From a virus, in IMG/VR virus record IMGVR_UViG_3300008113_000084, positions 25,382 through 89,381 of that record: a stretch of DNA of 64,000 nt. One strand, written 5' to 3'. Numbering within the stretch: the stretch's first letter is position 1; every line of letters begins with the position of its first letter. Positions 34,643 to 60,933 of this stretch are shown piece by piece. The notes below the pieces were generated by a model, which was given only the letters and a program-made list of their open reading frames with translations, had not been told where the DNA came from and did no database searches. Made by a program: the position numbers and the translations under genes.

Positions 34643-35041
34643 TCACACTTCTTCAGAAACGGGCTCAAGAGCGCTCGTAATCCGTTGGCGAGGCACAGGC
34701 GGCTTTACGGCCTCCGCGACCACCACGCGCGATTTCTGAGGCACAGGAACGCTAGTCTGAGACTGTGCTTGAACTTGAACGAACTGGCGAGTCTGCTCGG
34801 CCAGCTGGTTCAGCTTCTTGACATCCACCAGGTGGCGGATACGCACCGGCTCGGAAAGTCGCACACCGCAAGATGTCAACTTTTTGTACCGAGCGTTCAC
34901 GGAAACAACCGCCATTCCGAGAGCGTTGGCAATAGCTCGCCTGCCCTTGGAAGCGTAAGTTTCCCAGACACGGACAAAAGTCTCGTCGTCGCACTTGCGC
35001 GCAATCTTCTCAGCCTTGCGAGCCTTGGGGTCGTTCAACAT
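34643..35041 (-). CDS. HTH DNA-binding protein (paralog of 39109..39483)
   Basis: FVRVW..AIANALGM...VNARYKKL...GVRL..P. Confidence 0.6.
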   Translation of the reverse strand: MLNDPKARKAEKIARKCDDETFVRVWETYASKGRRAIANALGMAVVSVNARYKKLTSCGVRLSEPVRIRHLVDVKKLNQLAEQTRQFVQVQAQSQTSVPVPQKSRVVVAEAVKPPVPRQRITSALEPVSEEV

Positions 35042-35160
35042 AACCTACTTCCTTTCTGGGACGTGTTTAAATTAGCGAAGATAGGGACATAAAACCGTAT
35101 GCCCTATTTCCGAATACGTCAACTATCAAACAAACGCACCCAAAGCGGAACTGTTGAAGT

Positions 35161-35280
35161 TGTGACTTTATTATATTTTATTTTCAATAAAATATATTCT
35201 ATTTTTTTCTTGCATTGCCTGGGTCCAGACAATGACAAAAAAAGGTCTAGTACACTCATCTTATTAATAAGATGAGTGTA
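35161..35280. repeat. AT-rich tract with two palindromes
   Basis: TATATTTTATT-TTC-AATAAAATATA (35172-35196) and the perfect 30-bp palindrome TACACTCATCTTATTAATAAGATGAGTGTA (35251-35280). Confidence 0.8.
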
Positions 35281-35314
35281 TTAAACGCACAACCTCTACA
35301 TCTCCGCCTGTGGG

Positions 35315-35683
35315 TCATACTACTCCTGAAGAGTAATATTTAGTTATACTACCGACCAGTATCTGTGCTTGTTCTTCTTGGCTCAGTTTGTTTCTGGCAC
35401 GTGTGATAGCTTTCAAAAGCTCCAAGTCTTTTGCGATGTCGTACAGAAGTTCAAGGCAGAACACACCACGAATGGAATTAACCTTTTCGTGATTCTTGTC
35501 CAGGACGGCAGCCTTGCCTTTCCTTTTCCTTCGATGTGTGTCGGTTACCCGATCAATCAGTAAAGCTGGAAATCCTTCTTGCTTCAAAAGCTCGGAGTCC
35601 AGTACTGCCCATCCGTCGCAAAATTCCAAAAGCGCCATAACCAGTTCAGGTTTCACACTCAGCCAAGTCGCCAGAGTTTTCAT
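35315..35683 (-). CDS. hypothetical protein
   Basis: 122-aa ORF. Confidence 0.6.
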   Translation of the reverse strand: MKTLATWLSVKPELVMALLEFCDGWAVLDSELLKQEGFPALLIDRVTDTHRRKRKGKAAVLDKNHEKVNSIRGVFCLELLYDIAKDLELLKAITRARNKLSQEEQAQILVGSITKYYSSGVV

Positions 35684-38993: not shown

Positions 38994-39066
38994 TGGGCTC
39001 CCTGGGATTCGAACCCAGAACCAAAGGATTATGAGTCCTCTGCTCTAACCGTTGAGCTAGGAGCCC
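38994..39066 (-). tRNA. tRNA with CAT anticodon, most likely Ile2 (lysidine type)
   Basis: GGGCTCC..TAGCTCAACGGTTAGAGC..GACTCATAATC..GGTTCGAATCC..GGAGCCCA; Ile2-like anticodon arm; no encoded CCA. Confidence 0.88.
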
Positions 39067-39108
39067 TGTGTACGCCACACCCGTTTAGACGAGCGTACAC
39101 CTTAGCCG

Positions 39109-39483
39109 TTACCGGCTGTTTTTTCTTTCCTGGGTCAATCTAATAATATCCTCCAGCTTGGCTACGTCTGCCCTGGGCCACGGACCATCGAACGCAGGTT
39201 CTTCTAGGGGCACACCTTCTTCTTTCAGCCTGAGGTACCGGTAGTAAACCCAGGCCTTGCTGATTTTAAGTTCTTGGGCGATTGCGTCTATACCCTCTGC
39301 GTGTAACATTGTCCAAACGTAAACGAAATACTCGTCTGTGACCTTTCTACTAAACTCTTTACCTTTTCGGGTTTTACCGTTAATTGATATAGGGTTGTTG
39401 AAGTCACAGTTTTTGTTGTTGATGTAGTTGTTTAAAATTACGTAGCTGTCTTCGATATTGATGTTGTCTGTAGAGATGTTCAT
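39109..39483 (-). CDS. HTH DNA-binding protein (paralog of 34643..35041)
   Basis: FVYVW..AIAQELKI...VYYRYLRL...GVPL..P. Confidence 0.6.
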   Translation of the reverse strand: MNISTDNINIEDSYVILNNYINNKNCDFNNPISINGKTRKGKEFSRKVTDEYFVYVWTMLHAEGIDAIAQELKISKAWVYYRYLRLKEEGVPLEEPAFDGPWPRADVAKLEDIIRLTQERKNSR

Positions 39484-39524
39484 CCTTGATTCCTCGTGTT
39501 GTGGTTGTTTAAATTGACGCTAAC

Positions 39525-40433
39525 TTAAACATTCAGGCTGATAAGGCTACTCAAAGTTTGTTTGACTTGTTCGAGATTAGCTGGCTTTAACTTCCTACTG
39601 CTCTGGTCTTCTTGGGTAAACACTGGAATAGCCTTCAAAAATAAATCTTGGCTAAGCTTAAACTCGCTGGACGTGGCTTTGCTGGTTATGCGTTTAAATT
39701 CAGCCATCAAAGGTGTTTCTTCAGGGTTGCTTATTAGGCTTTCCTGAAACTCTTCCTGGGTCAAAAGAAGCCACTTATCTAAAGCTAACTGCCTTTTGTG
39801 CATATCTCCGTTTGCAAGAAGCCAGGCGTAGACAAACGCTGAGCGCAAACCTCGTGAAGGACTTCCGCTTATAAACTTATTTCCTAAGCAGGAAGCGGTA
39901 TACGCTTCTGAAATCTGTTCAGCGATAGCCCCGCTGACCAGAGTTTTTGTTCTGCTTAGACCAGTCATAGTTCTGTAGAACAAGGTACACACTTCGTCGT
40001 GAGCCTTGTCGATACCGTTGGAGACCGCGTTGCTGCGCAAACGCGGTTTGTCCATGATCTTAAACTCTTCCCACGGAGCGTCCCACTTCAGGATGATCGG
40101 TATTTTTTCCAATTTGCTGAGTTTAAATCCATAGAGCCTGCTTTGGCCATTCGTGACGATAAGATCGTACGAGACGCAGATAGCGTCATTACTAACTTTC
40201 CAGCGGCCAGCCAGCATCTCTTCAGCGTAATCTTCCTCTCGGGCTTTATCCCGCCTGCGGTTGTTGGTGTTGAGGCTGAGAATATAGTCTGCCAATTCCT
40301 GAGTTAGCCAAACCATCCTGACATTACCAAAATCTTCCACAGGCACAGGCGCGAATTTTTCAATCATTGACAGGTGAAGTTTGCGAGCTTCGTCTGAGTA
40401 AGAACCGTTCGGCACGACGACTTTGGTAGACAT
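39525..40433 (-). CDS. ParB/Srx-like domain protein
   Basis: NTNNRR...YAEEMLAGRW...NGQSRL (cf. DGQHRL). Confidence 0.6.
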   Translation of the reverse strand: MSTKVVVPNGSYSDEARKLHLSMIEKFAPVPVEDFGNVRMVWLTQELADYILSLNTNNRRRDKAREEDYAEEMLAGRWKVSNDAICVSYDLIVTNGQSRLYGFKLSKLEKIPIILKWDAPWEEFKIMDKPRLRSNAVSNGIDKAHDEVCTLFYRTMTGLSRTKTLVSGAIAEQISEAYTASCLGNKFISGSPSRGLRSAFVYAWLLANGDMHKRQLALDKWLLLTQEEFQESLISNPEETPLMAEFKRITSKATSSEFKLSQDLFLKAIPVFTQEDQSSRKLKPANLEQVKQTLSSLISLNV

Positions 40434-40942
40434 TTTAAAATCTCCTGTTCTTCTGAGTTGCGGTCCTGTTCTTGTATTAGTCGCAAGATTTGAATCTGTG
40501 GAACAGAAGGCCAGTCTTGCCTTCGCTGTTGATTGCTCTGACGCTTGAACCGTAACCGGCTGGGTCATACCAGTGGTAGAACCAGTCGGTAAGTTCTTTT
40601 TCCTTGTCTGTCACGCCGTCACCGACAACGGTGATCTCGACGATTCCGCCGTAGTCATACTCGTAAACATCCCAGCCCTTGACGGCTTCAGGATTTTTCT
40701 CCGAGTATCCGCGCAGCCAGCTGATTCTTTCGGCAGGTACTTTTAGGCTCATTGGTCGTACCCCAGGATTTCGTTGACTTGGTCGAGCAGGCTTTCCTCT
40801 TCCAGCCCTTCGCTCAGCTCCCCTACCGTGTGCCTCAGGTTGTTCGTGTGCCTGGCCAGCTTTTTGACCAGGTCTTTCTTGTCCTCGGTCAAGCCTTCCA
40901 AAATGTCGTTGACCAAGTCTTCCAACGCTGCATCGTCCATGC

Positions 40943-41662
40943 TTATCCTCCTCGACTACCGCAGTAGTCCCAAGTTCTGTCTTCGTAACACTTTTCGCCC
41001 TTGAGACGCAGACGGCCCTGGAACCCAATGCCGCCTTCGTAGTACCGTAGCTGTATAAGCAGCTCGGGGTATTGCTTGGCCAGTTCTCGAATTACAGGTT
41101 CTGGCGGAGACCAAGCTGTACTGAAGCTGAGACCGTAAATAGACTTGCCGTCTTTTTCCTGGTAGCTGGAACCAGAACAGTCGGCGTTCCACTTTGTGCC
41201 CCAGTTCTTAACTCGCCAGTCGTACCAGTTCAGCACGCCATACGTTTTCATGTTGAAGTTGTAATTGTTAGCCATACGCTCGTACGACATGACCTTTTCT
41301 TCTGTCAGCGTGTCGCTGCCGTCGTCAATAGACGCATGACTTCCGATAACTGCCAAGAAAGCTTTGAGTCTATTTTCTGGATAAGCTATGGTTAGAGCTT
41401 CTGGAACAGCCAGATTTATTTTTCTTTTTTTGTCGCCGTCGTACTTATTGAGAACTTCTTGCACGTCCTCTTCTGTACCAAACAACGCTGTATAAACTGA
41501 CTCTAGGCTTCCTGAAACTGTGTCCTTTATAGTTATCGGCGTCGGTATTATCTTTTCAAAGTCTAGCGCTATTTCGCTTTCTCCTTTAATTCTCTTGCGC
41601 AGCTTCAGCACTACCTGTGGTTTTCCCTTTACTAGTAGATCGTTTTCGCACCAGTTCGGCAT
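40943..41662 (-). CDS. DUF1281/YubB ferredoxin-like protein
   Basis: MPNWCEN, WYDWRVKNWGTKW, FSTAWSPP and YYEGG. Confidence 0.8.
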   Translation of the reverse strand: MPNWCENDLLVKGKPQVVLKLRKRIKGESEIALDFEKIIPTPITIKDTVSGSLESVYTALFGTEEDVQEVLNKYDGDKKRKINLAVPEALTIAYPENRLKAFLAVIGSHASIDDGSDTLTEEKVMSYERMANNYNFNMKTYGVLNWYDWRVKNWGTKWNADCSGSSYQEKDGKSIYGLSFSTAWSPPEPVIRELAKQYPELLIQLRYYEGGIGFQGRLRLKGEKCYEDRTWDYCGSRGG

Positions 41663-41963
41663 TTTTAATATTGCCTTTCTTATCGATGAACCCTACCCAC
41701 TCGTGTATGCAGTCAGCAACGTGCATACGCAGCACGCTGGTTGGACAGGTGGTTAGCATGTTTTCAAACATATACGTGACCCACTTCAAGTCTTTTAAAA
41801 CTTTCTTGTGGTCGTTCCAGTAGACTTTCAACTCCGCAACTAGGCTTTCGTGTTCGTTGCGGAGTGATTCTCTTTTTGCTTTGTAAGCGTCTTCGTGAAA
41901 TTTGTAATGCACCTGCTGCCACTTCTCCAGCTTTTCTCTAAGCTGCTTCTCATCCTTGATCAT
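41586..41963 (-). CDS. hypothetical protein
   Basis: 125-aa ORF with GGAG SD. Confidence 0.6.
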   Translation of the reverse strand: MIKDEKQLREKLEKWQQVHYKFHEDAYKAKRESLRNEHESLVAELKVYWNDHKKVLKDLKWVTYMFENMLTTCPTSVLRMHVADCIHEWVGFIDKKGNIKNAELVRKRSTSKGKTTGSAEAAQEN

Positions 41964-41971
41964 TGGAACTC

Positions 41972-42301
41972 CTAGCTGTAGGCTTTGAATGCCACTATCG
42001 CTGCTACCGCTACGGCTAAGCAGACAAGAGCTTGAACGCTTATTTTCTTGTCAGTTAGCATCAGCGGTAGCGCCGAGTACATGACTGTTATGATTAGGTC
42101 CCAGATCAGCGATGCCGCCACGATTCGTTTCGTGTCGTTTAAGTGTCTTACCAGTAAGACCCACAGTGTTGCGGTCGCTAGAGTTAAAACCCAAGTAGCC
42201 GGAAAGACAAACCAAGCGTTTCTCAGGTTTTGGCTGTAGGTCAACCAGCTGAGCAGGCCATACAGGGCTATGGCCGAAGAGAAACACAAAATGACATACA
42301 T
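41972..42301 (-). CDS. small 4-TM membrane protein
   Basis: Four hydrophobic segments. Confidence 0.7.
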   Translation of the reverse strand: MYVILCFSSAIALYGLLSWLTYSQNLRNAWFVFPATWVLTLATATLWVLLVRHLNDTKRIVAASLIWDLIITVMYSALPLMLTDKKISVQALVCLAVAVAAIVAFKAYS

Positions 42302-42393
42302 AAAAGCCTCGGGGGAAAGAACTTGCGCTCTTTCCCCCGATAAGCTTATTCAGGTTTTATGTCAAGTTTTTATGTCAAAAACCTGACCGAATC

Positions 42394-42735
42394 TTAGTAT
42401 CGGCAGCATGCGTAGAACATGCCATTTGCCCCTTGCGCGATTCCGACTTCACGCGGTGCCCACTTATGCCTAAAACAGCAATTCATCTCAGCCTGGTGCG
42501 GGGTGACCCCACAGCCCACGCCTTCATAGCCGCTATTGCCGCCGAAGTGGCCGATGCGGCAGAGCGAGGCCATGTAATTGGCTGCGTGCTGCGCTGTTCC
42601 GAGAAACGGGCGATTGGTTTGTTGCGCGTTATTGGTGCCATATGTTCTGCGATTAACCAGTCCGAATGGTCCGGCAGAAACAACAGAAACGCTGGTCATA
42701 ACCAACAAAGCTGCAAACGCAACGCGACTACGCAT
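42394..42735 (-). CDS. secreted Cys-rich CAP-like small protein
   Basis: Signal peptide; GHFGG..YEGVG..NCC..YACCRY. Confidence 0.6.
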   Translation of the reverse strand: MRSRVAFAALLVMTSVSVVSAGPFGLVNRRTYGTNNAQQTNRPFLGTAQHAANYMASLCRIGHFGGNSGYEGVGCGVTPHQAEMNCCFRHKWAPREVGIAQGANGMFYACCRY

Positions 42736-42788
42736 ACTAAATTCCTTTCTTTACCATCCTTGAACTAAGGAACCTAACGGCAAAGCAG

Positions 42789-43082
42789 TCAGTTCTTCAG
42801 CTGAATGTCAGGCTGCTTGCCACTCTGGTGTACCTTAACGCCCTTCTCCTTGGCGGGAATCGTGGCGCTAAGTTTGCCATCCTTGCTGGTGATAGGAGCC
42901 AGTGTCCCATCTCGCAGCAACAGGGCGGGTTTGCCGCTCTTGTCCACCACCACAGACACGGGCTCATGGTGACGGGTTTCAACCCGAGACTCACGACGCT
43001 CGCGAATACGGTCTAAGGGCCCTGCAACTGCAAAGTTAGCGCTGCTCAAAGCAAGAACCGCAATCAAAGCAAACTTACGCAT
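42789..43082 (-). CDS. secreted hypothetical protein
   Basis: Signal peptide MRKFALIAVLALSSANFAVA. Confidence 0.65.
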   Translation of the reverse strand: MRKFALIAVLALSSANFAVAGPLDRIRERRESRVETRHHEPVSVVVDKSGKPALLLRDGTLAPITSKDGKLSATIPAKEKGVKVHQSGKQPDIQLKN

Positions 43083-43135
43083 TTAACTACCTTCCTGGAA
43101 CAAACAAAAAACAGACAAGGAATACTTGCCTGCAA

Positions 43136-43208
43136 TGGACCTGGCAGGAATTGAACCTGCGACCAGACGTATATAAGACGTCCGCTCGTACCACTGAGCT
43201 ACAGGTCC
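43136..43208 (-). tRNA. tRNA-Ile (TAT)
   Basis: Full cloverleaf GGACCTG..GACGT-CTTATAT-ACGTC..GCAGG-TTCAATT-CCTGC-CAGGTCC-A. Confidence 0.88.
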
Positions 43209-43245
43209 AGTCAGACTATGGTATCGAATATAATACCGTAGTCAA

Positions 43246-43319
43246 TACTCTCGGCGGGAATTGAACCCACAACCTACGGAGTAGAAATCCGTTGCTCTAT
43301 ACAGTTGGGCTACGAAAGC
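43246..43319 (-). tRNA. tRNA-Arg (TCT)
   Basis: ACGGA-TTTCTAC-TCCGT anticodon arm; GGTTCAATTCC T-arm. Confidence 0.85.
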
Positions 43320-43325
43320 CTTGGT

Positions 43326-44006
43326 TTAAGATAAGTTTTCTAAAGTTTCAAAATAAACGTTAGCTCTGCGTACGTTATCTTCTGACGCTGGTAATCCTAC
43401 GCTTACAAAATAATTAGGCTCTATACCTAAAGCTTGGTTAACCGCTATTCTGCCTTCTTGAGACGCTTCAAAATAAATATATTCCATATTAAAATCATCG
43501 TCCCAAAGTATTCTTTCTTGCATACACTCTATTACTTCTTCCCAAGCTTCGTTATTAGTGTCTTTAATTCCAGTTATTTCTACTTCTTTGTCTAAGTATT
43601 TGATATTACACTTGTTTAACCAATGTCTTAGTGATTTATTTTTCCAAGTTGCGTATTGAGGTTTGTTCGTTTTAGGATCATATAGCTCTATTTCGTCGTT
43701 AACCGTTTGTTTTAAAATGCAAAACACAGCGTGTACTATAGCCTCTGACCACGCGTACAGTTCTTTTGGTTCTGTTTCATCTACAAGTTCTTTGACCACA
43801 TAAGCTAAATTTACTATTTTTTCTTCGTCTGGCATTTTGTTAAAAACTTCTGAACAATAATCAACGGAGACAGGTTCATTTTCATCGTCTTCTTTTAAAT
43901 CTGTATAGAGTAGTATAGTGTCATAAAGACAGAATGCGCCGAAAAGAAACAATTCTTTTTCAGGGCCTCTTAAAACTCTAACTCCTGCGGAAGTTGCCCA
44001 GCTCAT
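43326..44006 (-). CDS. AT-rich acidic hypothetical protein inside the tRNA cluster
   Basis: 226-aa ORF with AAGGAG SD. Confidence 0.75.
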   Translation of the reverse strand: MSWATSAGVRVLRGPEKELFLFGAFCLYDTILLYTDLKEDDENEPVSVDYCSEVFNKMPDEEKIVNLAYVVKELVDETEPKELYAWSEAIVHAVFCILKQTVNDEIELYDPKTNKPQYATWKNKSLRHWLNKCNIKYLDKEVEITGIKDTNNEAWEEVIECMQERILWDDDFNMEYIYFEASQEGRIAVNQALGIEPNYFVSVGLPASEDNVRRANVYFETLENLS

Positions 44007-44034
44007 AAAAACTCCTTTTCAGTTAAAAACATAT

Positions 44035-44106
44035 AGCCACCGATGGGAATCGAACCCACAACCCCTGGTTTACAAAACCAGAGCTCTACCGTTGAGCTAC
44101 AGTGGC
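44035..44106 (-). tRNA. tRNA-Thr (TGT)
   Basis: GCCACTG acceptor stem; CTGGT-TTTGTAA-ACCAG; GGTTCGATTCC. Confidence 0.9.
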
Positions 44107-54746: not shown

Positions 54747-55007
54747 TCAGTTGCTCCTGAAGTTAAAATAGAATCGCGGCGAATGGGTGAATTCAAGAAC
54801 TCCAACCACGCCATCTATTTTACGTTCTACCGTTACAGTAGGCGCGTGAAAAGCCTTGAAGTTGAACTTTTCAGTAGCCTCAGCCGTGGTAAACACGTTG
54901 TCTTTACCGTGCAGGTCTTCCAGTGTCTTTCGCAGCTCTTCAGCCGACTGCGCCTGGGACACAAGTAATCTGGAAGAAGCTGAGTCGTAGTTGCGGATCG
55001 ATACCAT
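54747..55007 (-). CDS. hypothetical protein
   Basis: VERKIDGVVGVLEFTHSPRFYFNF. Confidence 0.65.
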   Translation of the reverse strand: MVSIRNYDSASSRLLVSQAQSAEELRKTLEDLHGKDNVFTTAEATEKFNFKAFHAPTVTVERKIDGVVGVLEFTHSPRFYFNFRSN

Positions 55008-55252
55008 TACTTGTCTCCAAACTTGTTGTCCCACAACCAGTTCTTCTCTGCGTCGAGTGCCTCTTCGCGCAGGTTGAAAGGGCCAAGAATAGGACCGCCG
55101 ACCCGTGTTAGGTCGGCGGTCCATCCGCCCTTTCCGTCAGGTTCGACGTCAGATGCCCTTTTGACTTCTGTCTTTCCCTGCTCCATGAGGCTCTTCAGGG
55201 AATCGTCGTAGAGCATCTTCAGAGAACCGTCAGGTCGGACTTCAATAAGCAT
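55007..55252 (-). CDS. small conserved protein of the DUF1257/DUF2997 module
   Basis: RASDVEP..GWTADL..VGGP.LGPF..REEAL.AE. Confidence 0.7.
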   Translation of the reverse strand: MLIEVRPDGSLKMLYDDSLKSLMEQGKTEVKRASDVEPDGKGGWTADLTRVGGPILGPFNLREEALDAEKNWLWDNKFGDK

Positions 55253-55259
55253 CGCTACC

Positions 55260-55451
55260 TCACAGACGGGTTTGAATGCGCTGGTCCTGGGGCTTGTTGT
55301 AGAACTCTGGCTTGTAGGTTTGCTCGGTGGTCTTGCCGAGCGCCTCCTCCAAACCCTTGGTCAGATTGGTGCAACTGCCGCCAGAGCCGCCTTCCACCTC
55401 AACCTTGGTGTCGCCAGTCGGGCTGATCGTCACGATAATTTCTGCTGCCAT
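55260..55451 (-). CDS. DUF2997 family protein
   Basis: IIVTISPTG..KVEVEG..G.SC...TKGLEEALG....YKPEFY; AAGGA SD. Confidence 0.8.
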   Translation of the reverse strand: MAAEIIVTISPTGDTKVEVEGGSGGSCTNLTKGLEEALGKTTEQTYKPEFYNKPQDQRIQTRL

Positions 55452-55467
55452 TTTCTTTATCCTTATG

Positions 55468-55842
55468 CTGAGTCGCTCGTTGTTGACGTAAACACTGTAC
55501 GAGTAGTCCAAGTCACCGCTTAGATATTCTAGTGTTCGCAGGGCAATCGCTTGTCTAAGCGACGCCCCACACGGCCCTATAGCTGCGTACAGGGCCGTTC
55601 CGAAAGTCTCCTGCCATACAAGCTCAAGAGACTGATTGTTCTCGAATACGCCAATGGTGGGGGTCGAGGGGGCGTGGAAGCGTTCCACTCGCGGGACCAG
55701 AACGCCTCGACTACGCCCCCTCGGCTTGTAACCCGTCAACGGCCATGCCCTGACTTCCTTGTGGGTCAGGTAGCAGTCTGTGCAGACAGCTGACAAAACC
55801 CGCTCACTGGCTATGACCGTGACCAACACGTTAGCGGCCCAG
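55468..55842 (-). ncRNA. candidate large structured RNA inside the operon
   Basis: At least 7 hairpins, a terminal closing stem and a possible pseudoknot; G-U wobbles work only on the - strand. Confidence 0.6.
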
Positions 55843-56199
55843 ACGCATCTGGATAGTGCCGTCCGTGTTCAGGCTGCGATGCAGGACTCGGTAGCCCTGG
55901 CGCTGCGCGTGCTCCACGGCTACGTTCTCCGCATACTTTTGACGGAAAGCGTCAAAAGCTTTTTGCTCCCCCCACTGGCCGTTGTAGTTATCAAGCATCG
56001 CCGAGCCGTCTTTCATAACGGCCACGGGATACTGCCAGCCCTTAGGCCTGAAAGCGAACTCGCATTGCAGGTTCTTGTGCTCGCTCTGAAACAGGCTGAC
56101 CTTCTTGACATCCATGAACTCGTAGCCGAGTTCCTCGCAAGTCTTCTTGGCGATCTCGCGGTCGGAAATCTGGGTCTGGATTGTGGCGGTGTGAGACAT
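55831..56199 (-). CDS. DUF1257 family protein
   Basis: MSH..TIQTQI.D...GWQYPV...DNYNGQWG...QKYA...QGY. Confidence 0.8.
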   Translation of the reverse strand: MSHTATIQTQISDREIAKKTCEELGYEFMDVKKVSLFQSEHKNLQCEFAFRPKGWQYPVAVMKDGSAMLDNYNGQWGEQKAFDAFRQKYAENVAVEHAQRQGYRVLHRSLNTDGTIQMRLGR

Positions 56200-56253
56200 G
56201 GGAATCCTTCTTCCTTGTAAAGTGTTAACGCTAAGACAAAACAAAAACCAAAA

Positions 56254-57426
56254 TCACAGGTCCAACCCACGCATGAACTGACCGAAGACAGCACTGTGCG
56301 TCTCCTCTGAAGTCAGGTCCTCGCGGATGTTCTTGAAGTGACCTGCCAGCTCTCGGCTGGCAGTCTCGGAGCTGTTGATATCTTTCGTATCGACAGCTCC
56401 GATGATGGCAGCGGCATTGCGCAGGCGCTGCTTCAGGTCGTTAGGAGCCATGAACGAGAAACCTTGCAGCTTCTCGAACGAGGCGCGCAGGCTGTTGAGC
56501 GTGTTGCTCTTCAGCGAGGACCCACGAGCCAGTATACCTTCAATGTTCGCCAAAGACTCGGCGAACTCCTTCAGGGGTTCCTGGATCATGGTCTTGATGG
56601 CGTCGGCAACAGCCTGGCTGGTCTGCTGCTGCGCCTCGACAAGCCACGCCTCCGAGGCGCTCTCGCTCAGGGCCGTGCCTGGGTCGGAAGCGGCCTCGTT
56701 GACCACGCCAAGAATCTCGGACAGGTGAGCCCGAAGCGTCGCCTCATCGGCGCTGCCTCGGAAGGTCTTTACAAACCCCTCCTCCAGCCTTTCCTGAAAG
56801 TTGGCAGGTAGCCCAGCCCCCAGAGGAAAACGGATTGAGGATACAGTGTGAGCTGCAACGAAGCTCTCACCATTCGGAAGGTACTGGCGGAGCGCCTCGT
56901 ACTCGAAGGGGTACTCGGATTGGATTTTGGCGACGTGTGCCTCCCAGAGGGGACGCAGTTCAATAGCCTTATCTCGGTACTCACCTCGAATCTCTCCGAG
57001 TCGAGTAAATGCCTTCTGTGCTGGAGAACTTCCATGCCTGTCCCTCGCAATCGGAATTAGATAAGCCCCTCCGATAAAGGGCGTCCCGTAGGAGTACGGT
57101 ACTTGTCGGGCATGACCAGCAATGCGGCCAAGAGGATTCTTGATGTTGTTTGGAACAACCTTGAAGCGAGCGCCAGCCAGGAACTCTGGGGCGATCTCGT
57201 GCTCGCCCACGGCAACCGTGGCGTTCTTCACCAATCGCTCGTAGCCGACGGCGCTGACACTGACCTTCAGGGCCAGGCAGTTCTTGGCCAGAGTGCGCAG
57301 CATAACGTCGCTGCGTGCGCTGCTGAGCTGGGAGATGTCCAGCTCGGGCACGTTGACCGGAGGTGCCTCAGCGACAGGCTCGGTCTGGGAAATGATGGCA
57401 ATATCAGTCGTTGTCTCTGTGCTCAT
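56254..57426 (-). CDS. DUF3150-like protein of the AAA module
   Basis: YGTPFIGGAYLIP motif; position in the module. Confidence 0.5.
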   Translation of the reverse strand: MSTETTTDIAIISQTEPVAEAPPVNVPELDISQLSSARSDVMLRTLAKNCLALKVSVSAVGYERLVKNATVAVGEHEIAPEFLAGARFKVVPNNIKNPLGRIAGHARQVPYSYGTPFIGGAYLIPIARDRHGSSPAQKAFTRLGEIRGEYRDKAIELRPLWEAHVAKIQSEYPFEYEALRQYLPNGESFVAAHTVSSIRFPLGAGLPANFQERLEEGFVKTFRGSADEATLRAHLSEILGVVNEAASDPGTALSESASEAWLVEAQQQTSQAVADAIKTMIQEPLKEFAESLANIEGILARGSSLKSNTLNSLRASFEKLQGFSFMAPNDLKQRLRNAAAIIGAVDTKDINSSETASRELAGHFKNIREDLTSEETHSAVFGQFMRGLDL

Positions 57427-57509: not shown

Positions 57510-59102
57510 TTAGCGCTTAGCGTTTGGATCGCCCATGGTCATGTCCATGGCGCGAACATGCTGGCGCACGACCTTGCGGCTGCGGCCAGATACGTTGCGA
57601 GCCCGCTCAGCGCCGAACGAACGAATCTGTTCTATGTTGATGGGATCGACTTTGGTGACGGGGTTCACCAGCTTCAGCTCGGAGACGAGCTGGGCCGCTG
57701 TGAACTTGCCCTCGGTCGATGGGTCCATCTCGTATGCGTTCAGCTGCGCGTCGGAGACCGAGTTCTGAATCTCGGCACCTACGAATCCCTCGGAAGCCTC
57801 GATGATCTCGGTCCACTCGTGGGCGTCGAACGAGGTGGGGTCGATGTCACGAGCGCGCATATGAATCTCGAAGATTTGACGGCGCTCGTCGGCGTCTGGA
57901 GTATCGACGAAGAACACCTCGTCGAAACGGCCCTTGCGCAGCATCTCGGGAGGAATACCAGCCACGCGGTTCATGGTCATCACCACGAACGTGCGGGTGG
58001 TTTTCTCAGCCAGCCAGGTCAGCAGCTGGCCGAAGATGCGGCGGGTCACGCCGCTGTCGCCAGAGCTCTCGACCGCACCGCCGAGCGCCTTGTCGGCCTC
58101 GTCGATCAGCAGAACTGACCCGTTCATGACCTGAATCTCCTCACGGGTGCGGCGCTCGGACTCGCCGACCAGGGAGTTGAACAGGGCACCGATGTCCATC
58201 TTCAGCAGCGGCAGGTGCAGCTGCTTGGCGATGGCCCGTGCGCAGACCGACTTGCCGGTACCAGGCACACCCAGCAGAACGATGCCCTTCGGCATGGCCA
58301 GCTTCAGCCGCTCGGCCTCCTCGGTGTAGGCGACCTTGCGGCGGTTCAGCCAGTTCTTCAACTCCAGGAAGCCGCCCAGATCGGTGCTGGACATGATCTC
58401 CTTCTTGGAGACGTAAGTCAGCACTTCGGACTTCTTGAGAAGCAACGCCTTCTCTTCCTCGACCGTGTCCATGACCTCCTCGCAGAACCGCCCGTGAGTC
58501 AGCACCGACTCGGCCAGCACGTCGGTAGCGTCAGGGCAGGTCAGACCAGACAGGCTGTTGACGATCTGGTGTCGCAAATCCTGAGTGCACTCGCGACGGG
58601 ACTCGTCGCGAATCGATTGCTGGATACTCTCAAAGACAGTGGACAGCTGCTGCCGGTTTGGCAGCACCATCTCGACCATCTTCATGTAGGGCATGACGTC
58701 GGGATTCATTACCGACCCCGTGGTCAGGATGAACAGCGGGCGGCGTTGACGGCCATTGTTGAACGCCTGCATCGACACCAGCCGCTTCAGGCTGGAGACG
58801 AGGGCTGGGATTGCGCCCAGGTCGTAATGCAGGTCGTGCATCGCCACGATGGCGTTGCCTTGAACGGCGTTCTCGCCGCTGGCAACGGCTTCGAGCGCCT
58901 GGACAGGGTTGATCATGTTGTTGGTGCCGAACCCCTTCGCGGGGTCCCAGGTCCTGAAGTCCAGGTTAAGGTTGTCCGCAATCTTCTTGAGCATCTGCTC
59001 GGCGGCGTTGATCTGGCCGCCGCACACCAGGTGGACAACCTGGACGCCGCTGCGGATGTAGTTACGAATCTTGTTCTCGACTTCTTGAGCGTCACGAAGC
59101 AT
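57510..59102 (-). CDS. Ycf46-like AAA+ ATPase
   Basis: Degenerate N-terminal P-loop domain (MHDLH); LGVPGTGKS, GESE, LLIDEADK and PPEMLRKGRFDE. Confidence 0.9.
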   Translation of the reverse strand: MLRDAQEVENKIRNYIRSGVQVVHLVCGGQINAAEQMLKKIADNLNLDFRTWDPAKGFGTNNMINPVQALEAVASGENAVQGNAIVAMHDLHYDLGAIPALVSSLKRLVSMQAFNNGRQRRPLFILTTGSVMNPDVMPYMKMVEMVLPNRQQLSTVFESIQQSIRDESRRECTQDLRHQIVNSLSGLTCPDATDVLAESVLTHGRFCEEVMDTVEEEKALLLKKSEVLTYVSKKEIMSSTDLGGFLELKNWLNRRKVAYTEEAERLKLAMPKGIVLLGVPGTGKSVCARAIAKQLHLPLLKMDIGALFNSLVGESERRTREEIQVMNGSVLLIDEADKALGGAVESSGDSGVTRRIFGQLLTWLAEKTTRTFVVMTMNRVAGIPPEMLRKGRFDEVFFVDTPDADERRQIFEIHMRARDIDPTSFDAHEWTEIIEASEGFVGAEIQNSVSDAQLNAYEMDPSTEGKFTAAQLVSELKLVNPVTKVDPINIEQIRSFGAERARNVSGRSRKVVRQHVRAMDMTMGDPNAKR

Positions 59103-60197: not shown

Positions 60198-60260
60198 ATA
60201 GCTAAGGAAAAACCCCGACTAACCCGCAGCTCTCGAAAGAGTTGCGGGTTGTGGGGTTTT
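60198..60260 (-). terminator. intrinsic terminator (UUCG loop) plus TTAGCTAT
   Basis: AAAACCCC..AACCCGCA.CTCT-TTCG-AGAG.TGCGGGTT..GGGGTTTTT-CC-TTAGCTAT. Confidence 0.85.
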
Positions 60261-60264
60261 ATAG

Positions 60265-60426
60265 TTATTTGCATAACTGGCGCAGGTAGCGCTTTTTAGC
60301 GCCACTGCTGGTAAGGACTGTTGGGCGCATGGACACGCCCAGCTCGATGAGCCTCTGCTGGGTAGCAGTCAGCTCGATCTGGACCTTACCCACCACAAGC
60401 TGATTCTTAAGAACGATAGTCCTCAT
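60265..60426 (-). CDS. 53-aa basic peptide in its own cassette (not in ORF track)
   Basis: MRTIVLKNQLVVGKVQIELTATQQRLIELGVSMRPTVLTSSGAKKRYLRQLCK*; AAGGAG SD. Confidence 0.65.
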   Translation of the reverse strand: MRTIVLKNQLVVGKVQIELTATQQRLIELGVSMRPTVLTSSGAKKRYLRQLCK

Positions 60427-60468
60427 TAAACGTCTCCTTGACTGAGAGGGCTAATACTACACCAATAG

Positions 60469-60507
60469 ATTATGACCTGAAATCGCTGTGGATTTATTCA
60501 GGTCATA
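60469..60507 (-). promoter_or_regulatory. promoter TAAAT-N15-GTCATAAT overlapped by an 11-bp inverted repeat
   Basis: TATGACCTGAA (60471-60481) / TTCAGGTCATA (60497-60507). Confidence 0.6.
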
Positions 60508-60510
60508 GCT

Positions 60511-60933
60511 AAAAACAAAACCGACCAAGCCAGCGCTTAATAGCACTGGCCTAGTCGGTATGTTTATCCACGACTCATCACGTGGTCCCATTTAACTTAG
60601 GTGGGTTACCTAACGACGTTGACTGCTACACTTCGCAGTAGCTTCCATCAACGCGACCTCATAGCGCCCACCGCTCTCCGCTCTGGTCTGTGGGAGACCT
60701 CCTATGTTTACACCGTAGGTAATGGGAGCCTTGTCGCGGTATCCAATACGACACTGGTTTATTAGGATTGCCAGTGTGTTCCTTGCAGTATGTAGTTACT
60801 GCCAACTGCCCTTTTCAGGTAGGGCACTCTTTCGAGCCGCTAGAACGCGCACCTATCTCGTGTCGGGCGTCAGCCTTAGAGACATGGGGACTGACGGAAC
60901 GCAGTAGGTCTTGTGCGACAGCTACTTAGCATT
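60511..60933 (-). ncRNA. candidate independently transcribed structured RNA (~420 nt)
   Basis: Promoter motif at 60940-60967 and terminator at ~60511-60560; no - strand ORF with an SD; ~10 hairpins in two closed domains. Confidence 0.65.

Follow-up and report, generated by a model that had tools for sequence, protein, structure and literature searches.

Structure in messenger RNA is known to gate the start of a downstream gene in coupled operons, as in the coat/replicase and coat/lysis pairs of MS2 and in the ribosomal-protein operons. There are also RNAs which both encode a protein and act as regulators, such as SgrS/SgrT and RNAIII/hld, and in these the open reading frame (ORF) occupies only a minor portion of an sRNA whose ends are defined. 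As for the genes treated here, a DUF2997-DUF1257(ycf35)-fed7 cluster has been described in cyanobacteria (PMC4284462), and a literature search on DUF1257, DUF2997, Ycf35 and Ycf46 gave gene-neighbourhood mentions that state no function.

The locus discussed in this paper belongs to an 89-kb IMG/VR virus record estimated to be 43% complete, of which a 64,000-nt part, hereafter called the window, was analysed. It carries the three families of the cyanobacterial and plastid Ycf46 (AAA)/Ycf35 (DUF1257)/DUF2997 neighbourhoods in the same orientation. However, unlike those neighbourhoods, it is phage-borne, it contains a DUF3150-like gene and it has an extra gene, named X here, which lies between DUF1257 and DUF2997 and is fused to DUF2997 (Table 1). 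Downstream of DUF2997 there are two small conserved ORFs and a GNAT acetyltransferase gene. Thirteen studies of lake and freshwater metagenomes contain near-identical sequence, and 19 freshwater or lake DNA runs contain the locus; coverage by RNA runs is confined to 55213-55327, in one contig of depth 2. In another part of the window, 38994-44106, the minus strand carries four tRNA genes (Met-CAT, Ile-TAT, Arg-TCT and Thr-TGT).

A preliminary description of this DNA had taken the approximately 380 nt between DUF1257 and DUF2997 for a novel non-coding RNA (ncRNA). The present analysis removes that annotation and puts a gene of the small protein family X in its place. It is very probable that X is a translationally coupled coding gene whose mRNA carries a selected structure acting in cis. 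The case is also an example of a trap, namely a coding region that resembles a structured RNA since its mRNA is under some selection for folding.

Table 1. Genes, translation signals and hairpin domains of the locus (window coordinates)
Feature	Position	Strand	Remarks
Ycf46-like AAA ATPase gene	59102..57510	-	
DUF3150-like gene	57426..56254	-	
DUF1257 (Ycf35-like) gene, 122 aa	55831..56199	-	stop TAA 55833-55831; Pfam PF06868, E 1.6e-06
Gene X, 126 codons	55452..55829	-	GTG start 1 nt past DUF1257 stop; without its own stop
DUF2997 part of the 189-aa ORF	55260..55451	-	own ATG kept at 55451-55449; PF11211
Shine-Dalgarno (SD) AAGGA	55460..55464	-	8 nt upstream of internal DUF2997 ATG; predicted mostly unpaired
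81-aa ORF, next gene downstream of DUF2997	55252..55007	-	
D1, codons 4-30	55739..55820	-	closing helix ACGGYCA/UGGCCGU
D2, long GC hairpin, codons 33-58	55661..55734	-	core 55665-55723; -44 kcal/mol
D3, weak hairpin, codons 62-77	55599..55646	-	-13.7 kcal/mol
D4 + D5, adjacent hairpins, codons 78-98	55571-55598 + 55538-55570	-	-18.0, -19.2 kcal/mol

Gene X and its family

As judged from the way in which it differs among relatives, 55452..55829 is a protein-coding gene and not an intergenic RNA. X runs in frame into DUF2997 to form one continuous ORF of 189 aa, 55829..55260 (-), whose residues 131-177 match PF11211 (E 3.6e-16; 59.2 bits against a gathering score of 24.1). The non-coding separation of DUF1257 from DUF2997 that was first described thus gives way to a frame which is open over the whole stretch and conserved as protein. 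Full-length homologues at the protein level are 74%, 66% and 40% identical; homologues comprise P0002-P0014 and those encoded by the contigs L002, L004, L008 and L009. None of the relatives found has the frame interrupted (eight homologues, with identities as low as about 30%), and in relatives with 45% GC it is open over 134 codons. For the pair window/L002, dN/dS amounts to 0.174 in X, 0.154 in DUF1257 and 0.119 in DUF2997, and pS is alike in the three (0.56, 0.55 and 0.52, respectively), X not being depressed. Differences from a 75%-identical relative fall on codon positions 1, 2 and 3 in the numbers 27, 16 and 54, and the gaps in a plain nucleotide alignment are whole codons. It is because of this dN/dS of 0.17, the third-position periodicity, the triplet indels and the conservative substitutions that X is held to be coding, and with such values for the 126-codon extension the novel ncRNA fails the test which the preliminary description itself had set. 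A natural variant is also on record in another sample's contig, G>T on the plus strand at 55532, which turns Leu100 of X into Ile; the change is conservative, and Ile is the residue of the cluster representative P0001.

When 1.84 billion representative proteins were searched with a profile, X had 15 hits at E<=0.001, and the nine that were read include stand-alone forms of about 130 aa as well as X-DUF2997 fusions. Searches of Pfam with hmmscan gave no family match for X even at E<=10, nor did blastn and tblastn find a match in a phage collection; DNA of X relatives was found as four distinct contigs in IMG/VR and JGI. X is a rare, undescribed small protein family without a Pfam entry. Orthologues of DUF1257 were collected from 21 viral loci, and X occurs in the four closest of these only, so it is regarded as a clade-specific extra member of the module. 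In DNA it always sits between DUF1257 and DUF2997, and in loci without X, DUF2997 begins about 10-20 nt past DUF1257 in 16 of 17. A distant relative, L011 (IMGVR_UViG_3300029288_000065), has DUF2997 about 1.7 kb downstream of DUF1257 and not directly after it, which means that a different insertion occupies the junction there.

Both a separate and a fused form of X exist. It is a separate ORF of 128-134 aa in three lineages: in L004 it has 128 aa and its TGA overlaps the DUF2997 ATG (ATGA), and in L008 and L009 it has 134 aa and overlaps the DUF2997 start by 11 nt in a different frame. It is fused in frame to DUF2997 in the window, L002/L003, P0002, P0003, P0004, P0009, P0013 and P0014. The fusion does not stem from faulty assembly, as a DNA contig from another sample (run X15) spans the locus free of insertions and deletions. 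In this phage the stop codon of X has been lost, and the product is the 189-aa X-DUF2997 protein. The repeated fusion argues that both proteins work together, and suggests X to be a physical partner within the Ycf46/Ycf35/DUF2997 module.

The AF2 model of X is of modest confidence (pLDDT 64; that of DUF1257 has 84), sequence searches of the PDB gave best E values of 0.56 for X and 0.72 for DUF1257, and Foldseek of the X-DUF2997 model against the PDB gave no match at E<=0.001. A wide VIA-align search with the DUF1257 and X-DUF2997 models returned KA1/TBP-like alpha+beta matches with Z<=6, which is the tool's stated background. X and DUF1257 (PF06868) are nevertheless alike in several respects: their lengths are similar (126 and 122 aa), predicted secondary-structure elements come in matching order at nearly matching positions, many weak PDB matches are common to both models, and hhalign places the C-terminal helix-strand-strand in register over 36 columns, with a probability of only 8.6%. 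On the other hand, BLASTP gives no alignment of the two and X has no Pfam PF06868 hit at E<=10. An origin of X from a very old duplication of DUF1257 is possible and unproven.

Folding of the X message

The dense pairing reported at first is present in the sequence, with hairpins at 55665-55723, 55571-55598, 55605-55633, 55547-55562, 55749-55770 and 55776-55787, and the minus strand of 55453-55845 folds with a minimum free energy (MFE) of -167.5 kcal/mol and z -4.66, none of 100 dinucleotide shuffles being as stable. The plus strand of the same segment is weaker (z -3.54). In the window and in four relatives alike, the sense strand exceeds the antisense strand in stability by 12-30 kcal/mol and has more G-U pairs, and in this the strand specificity and the minus-strand G-U pairs of the preliminary description are confirmed. 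Two of its elements are lost. The terminal stem 55468-77/55833-42 (duplex -17.1 kcal/mol; 4.7% of shuffles as good) occurs in the window only and is missing from the four relatives and from the consensus fold, and what had seemed a possible pseudoknot, 55491-96/55531-36, is the nested stem of a hairpin, D6, which does not surpass codon shuffles in stability (z +0.97).

The strength of the fold was compared with that of codon-shuffled sequences in which the protein is kept. For X the z values are -4.5 in the window, -5.5 in L002, -4.2 in L004, -4.1 in L008 and -2.8 in L009, and for the DUF1257 gene of those genomes they are -0.9 to -2.5. The groups window/L002, L004 and L008/L009 are mutually saturated at synonymous sites, and the recurrence of the excess fold is consequently not a matter of shared ancestry. 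In statistical terms, the folding of the X mRNA goes beyond what the encoded protein demands, and this is kept in diverged relatives; the excess presumably has a function.

The fold consists of local hairpins. D1 has about -30 kcal/mol in 5/5 homologues and a local codon-shuffle z of -1.7 to -3.6; in its closing helix all five homologues have ACG for Thr4 and four of the five have CCG for Pro30, the codons of the remaining invariant residues being variable, and helix 1, which belongs to D1, is 95% paired. D2 has a local z of -3.9 in the window, -4.3 in L002 and -4.9 in L004, and -0.65 and +0.67 in L008 and L009, respectively, with double changes in 6 of the 10 pairs of its stem. The D4/5 region has -3.95 in the window, -5.05 in L002, -5.9 in L008 and -4.65 in L009, and +1.1 in L004; helix 10, situated there, has double changes in 6/13 pairs. 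D3 reaches z -2.2 in the window and is not significant in the relatives.

Covariation was counted on an RNAalifold consensus derived from the same six sequences that make up the covariation set. Double changes occur in 28/72 pairs of X and in 9/72 for the DUF1257 control, a contrast that is inflated since X is more divergent than this control; shuffled controls gave 15.9 +/- 2.4 (0/500 reach 28) and slid controls 8-13. Third-position changes are rarer at paired sites (72/172) than at unpaired sites (51/88; p 0.018). Compensatory changes exceed the controls. Of the pairs in which a change occurred, roughly half are disrupted, and this holds for close relatives too. Between distant lineages the exact pairs overlap weakly (z 0.1-2.5), and no single fixed architecture was found across the lineages, the hairpins being lineage-specific and the terminal stem not conserved. 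Such a pattern fits an mRNA selected for being folded at this place rather than a defined ncRNA. What is retained of the original suggestion is selection at the RNA level in the form of a cis-regulator, which is moderately supported by the codon-shuffle z of the window, its recurrence and the compensatory changes, and what is given up is the ncRNA.

Folding outliers also occur elsewhere in the window. The 3' third of the DUF3150-like gene, 56293-56670 (-), has a codon-shuffle z of -3.56, the strongest of eight chunks taken from the neighbouring DUF1257, DUF3150-like and AAA genes, and there may be several structured coding segments in this operon. Relative to GC content, the window is most strongly over-folded at 191-1330, on both strands, with residuals per 380 nt down to -52 kcal/mol (-) and -45 kcal/mol (+); repeats or a large structured element might account for this. 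Further GC-corrected outliers lie at 34961-35530, an AT-rich gap, and at 60231-60610.

In addition, the 81-aa ORF downstream of DUF2997 contains, at 55092-55122 (-), a 13-bp GC-rich hairpin, GGACCGCCGAYC-loop-GGTCGGCGGTCC, with a U-rich tail, which encodes WTADLTRVGGP and was flagged as terminator-like. Every synonymous position of the arms is identical in the window, L002, L004, L008 and L009, although the synonymous sites of these lineages are otherwise saturated; the sole change in an arm is GAC/GAT, that is, G-C/G-U on the sense strand. The hairpin is single-copy, an exact-pattern scan of IMG/VR found it only in the four X-bearing contigs, and its conservation at the nucleotide level is stronger than anywhere within X. 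It is a candidate for an internal terminator or attenuator, or for a protein-binding hairpin.

Other readings of the fold

The excess of structure might be incidental. X would then be an ordinary gene, its fold coming from chance, composition and a genome-wide folding tendency and not from any selection directed at X in particular. Over 30 coding chunks of 378 nt drawn at random from the window, codon-shuffle z averages -1.35 (sd 1.4), so that coding sequence here is in general more folded than its shuffles, and the lowest of the chunks reaches -3.8; 55481-55860(-) ranks 19th among 335 windows when MFE is regressed on GC, other parts of the genome folding at least as strongly for their GC; conservation of individual pairs between lineages is poor, as described above; and a Gly-rich segment (GGN) followed by a Pro/Ser/Thr-rich one (NCC) favours complementarity. 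All of these agree with such an explanation. However, protein-keeping codon shuffles give z values of -4.2 to -5.5 in three saturated lineages, unlike in the adjacent DUF1257, the D1 closing helix keeps its synonymous positions, and the covariation counts are above both the shuffled and the slid controls. Incidental structure is rather unlikely.

It is improbable that the message is a dual-function RNA, one which encodes X and whose fold of about 340 nt is also an RNA in its own right, serving the AAA, DUF1257, X or DUF2997 proteins as, for example, a scaffold, ligand or substrate. The excess structure kept in three lineages saturated at synonymous sites, the favoured sense strand and the compensatory changes in D2 and D4, some of which are non-synonymous, are in keeping with it, and RNA-binding KA1/TBP-like domains are among the weak fold matches to the DUF1257 and X-DUF2997 models, their Z of 5-6 being background. 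Against it, the architecture is not fixed, as the hairpins vary by lineage and half of the altered pairs are disrupted, Rfam gives no match, pS of X is not below that of the flanking genes, and no promoter or terminator bounds an RNA: no terminator-like site was found inside 55452-55829 (-), the nearest being 55122-55092 and 56271-56255, and no promoter was found on the coding strand inside the X stretch. Like SgrS/SgrT and RNAIII/hld, the X stretch is a structured RNA that also carries an ORF; unlike them, the ORF of X fills the whole structured stretch, the RNA has no defined ends and the fold is not fixed between lineages. A specific form of the idea, in which the sense-specific hairpins D1, D2 and D4/5 of a dual-function X message are bound or remodelled by the Ycf46-like AAA ATPase together with the DUF1257, X and DUF2997 proteins, is slightly less probable again. 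If it were true, the Ycf46-Ycf35-DUF2997 module would be an RNA-directed machine with its own RNA ligand inside one gene.

Finally, it is very improbable that a free-standing ncRNA, a mobile RNA element or an intron was inserted here, the frame being accidental and DUF2997 being made from its own ATG only, for, although the fold is strong, the internal SD and ATG of DUF2997 are kept and DUF2997 directly follows DUF1257 in more distant relatives, so that the approximately 380 nt are an insertion on that scale, the coding constraint of X, its frame open over 134 codons in the 45%-GC relatives and the stand-alone X proteins, which are ORFs of their own with their own stop codons, all speak against it. 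The small mobile RNA element of the preliminary description fails in the same way, as there is a single copy in the 89-kb record, a conserved protein is encoded and there is no Rfam family; cmscan of 54900-56400 at E<=10 gave chance-level hits only, the best inside the region being mir-322 with 16 bits against a gathering score of 62.

Junctions, proposed coupling and comparison with known operons

The reading preferred here, a translationally coupled gene X with a selected structure in its mRNA, brings the fold together with the gene junctions. In five lineages the DUF1257/X junction is TAAC-GTG, TGAC-GTG, TAAT-ATG or TAATG, and X begins 0-1 nt past the DUF1257 stop. This layout is the one expected for termination-reinitiation coupling and points to such coupling. 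The predicted unpaired probability of the X start region is 0.15-0.37 in the five homologues, their transcript means being 0.36-0.39; it is below the mean in four of the five and about at the mean in L004. The DUF2997 ATG is preceded by an SD in 5/5 lineages, and the unpaired probability of this ribosome-binding site (RBS) is 0.38-0.73 across the homologues, the window having 0.73 against an overall mean of 0.38.

The fold would act in cis on the X mRNA. With D1 beginning at +10 of X and the X start region predicted to be more paired than the sequence beside it, independent loading of ribosomes would be limited, and X would be translated mainly by ribosomes arriving from DUF1257; the hairpins would perhaps also slow or stabilise the message. 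Free DUF2997 could be made from the retained internal SD and ATG, and the relative amounts of DUF1257, of the X-DUF2997 fusion and of free DUF2997 would be set in this way. We infer this role in coupling and occlusion from the predicted pairing.

The operon is perhaps a useful small test case of phage mRNA structure setting protein ratios, and its use as such is strengthened by the conserved 13-bp hairpin in the next gene. When it is set beside the MS2 and ribosomal-protein coupled operons, two differences in layout appear: the structure spans the whole 378-nt ORF and not just an RBS, and the next RBS, that of DUF2997, is open and not sequestered. The likenesses concern the start of the downstream gene. 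As in those operons, a gap of 0-1 nt lies between the stop codon and the start codon that follows it, the downstream gene has a relatively base-paired start region, and a stable structure is predicted to begin about 10 nt into the downstream ORF.
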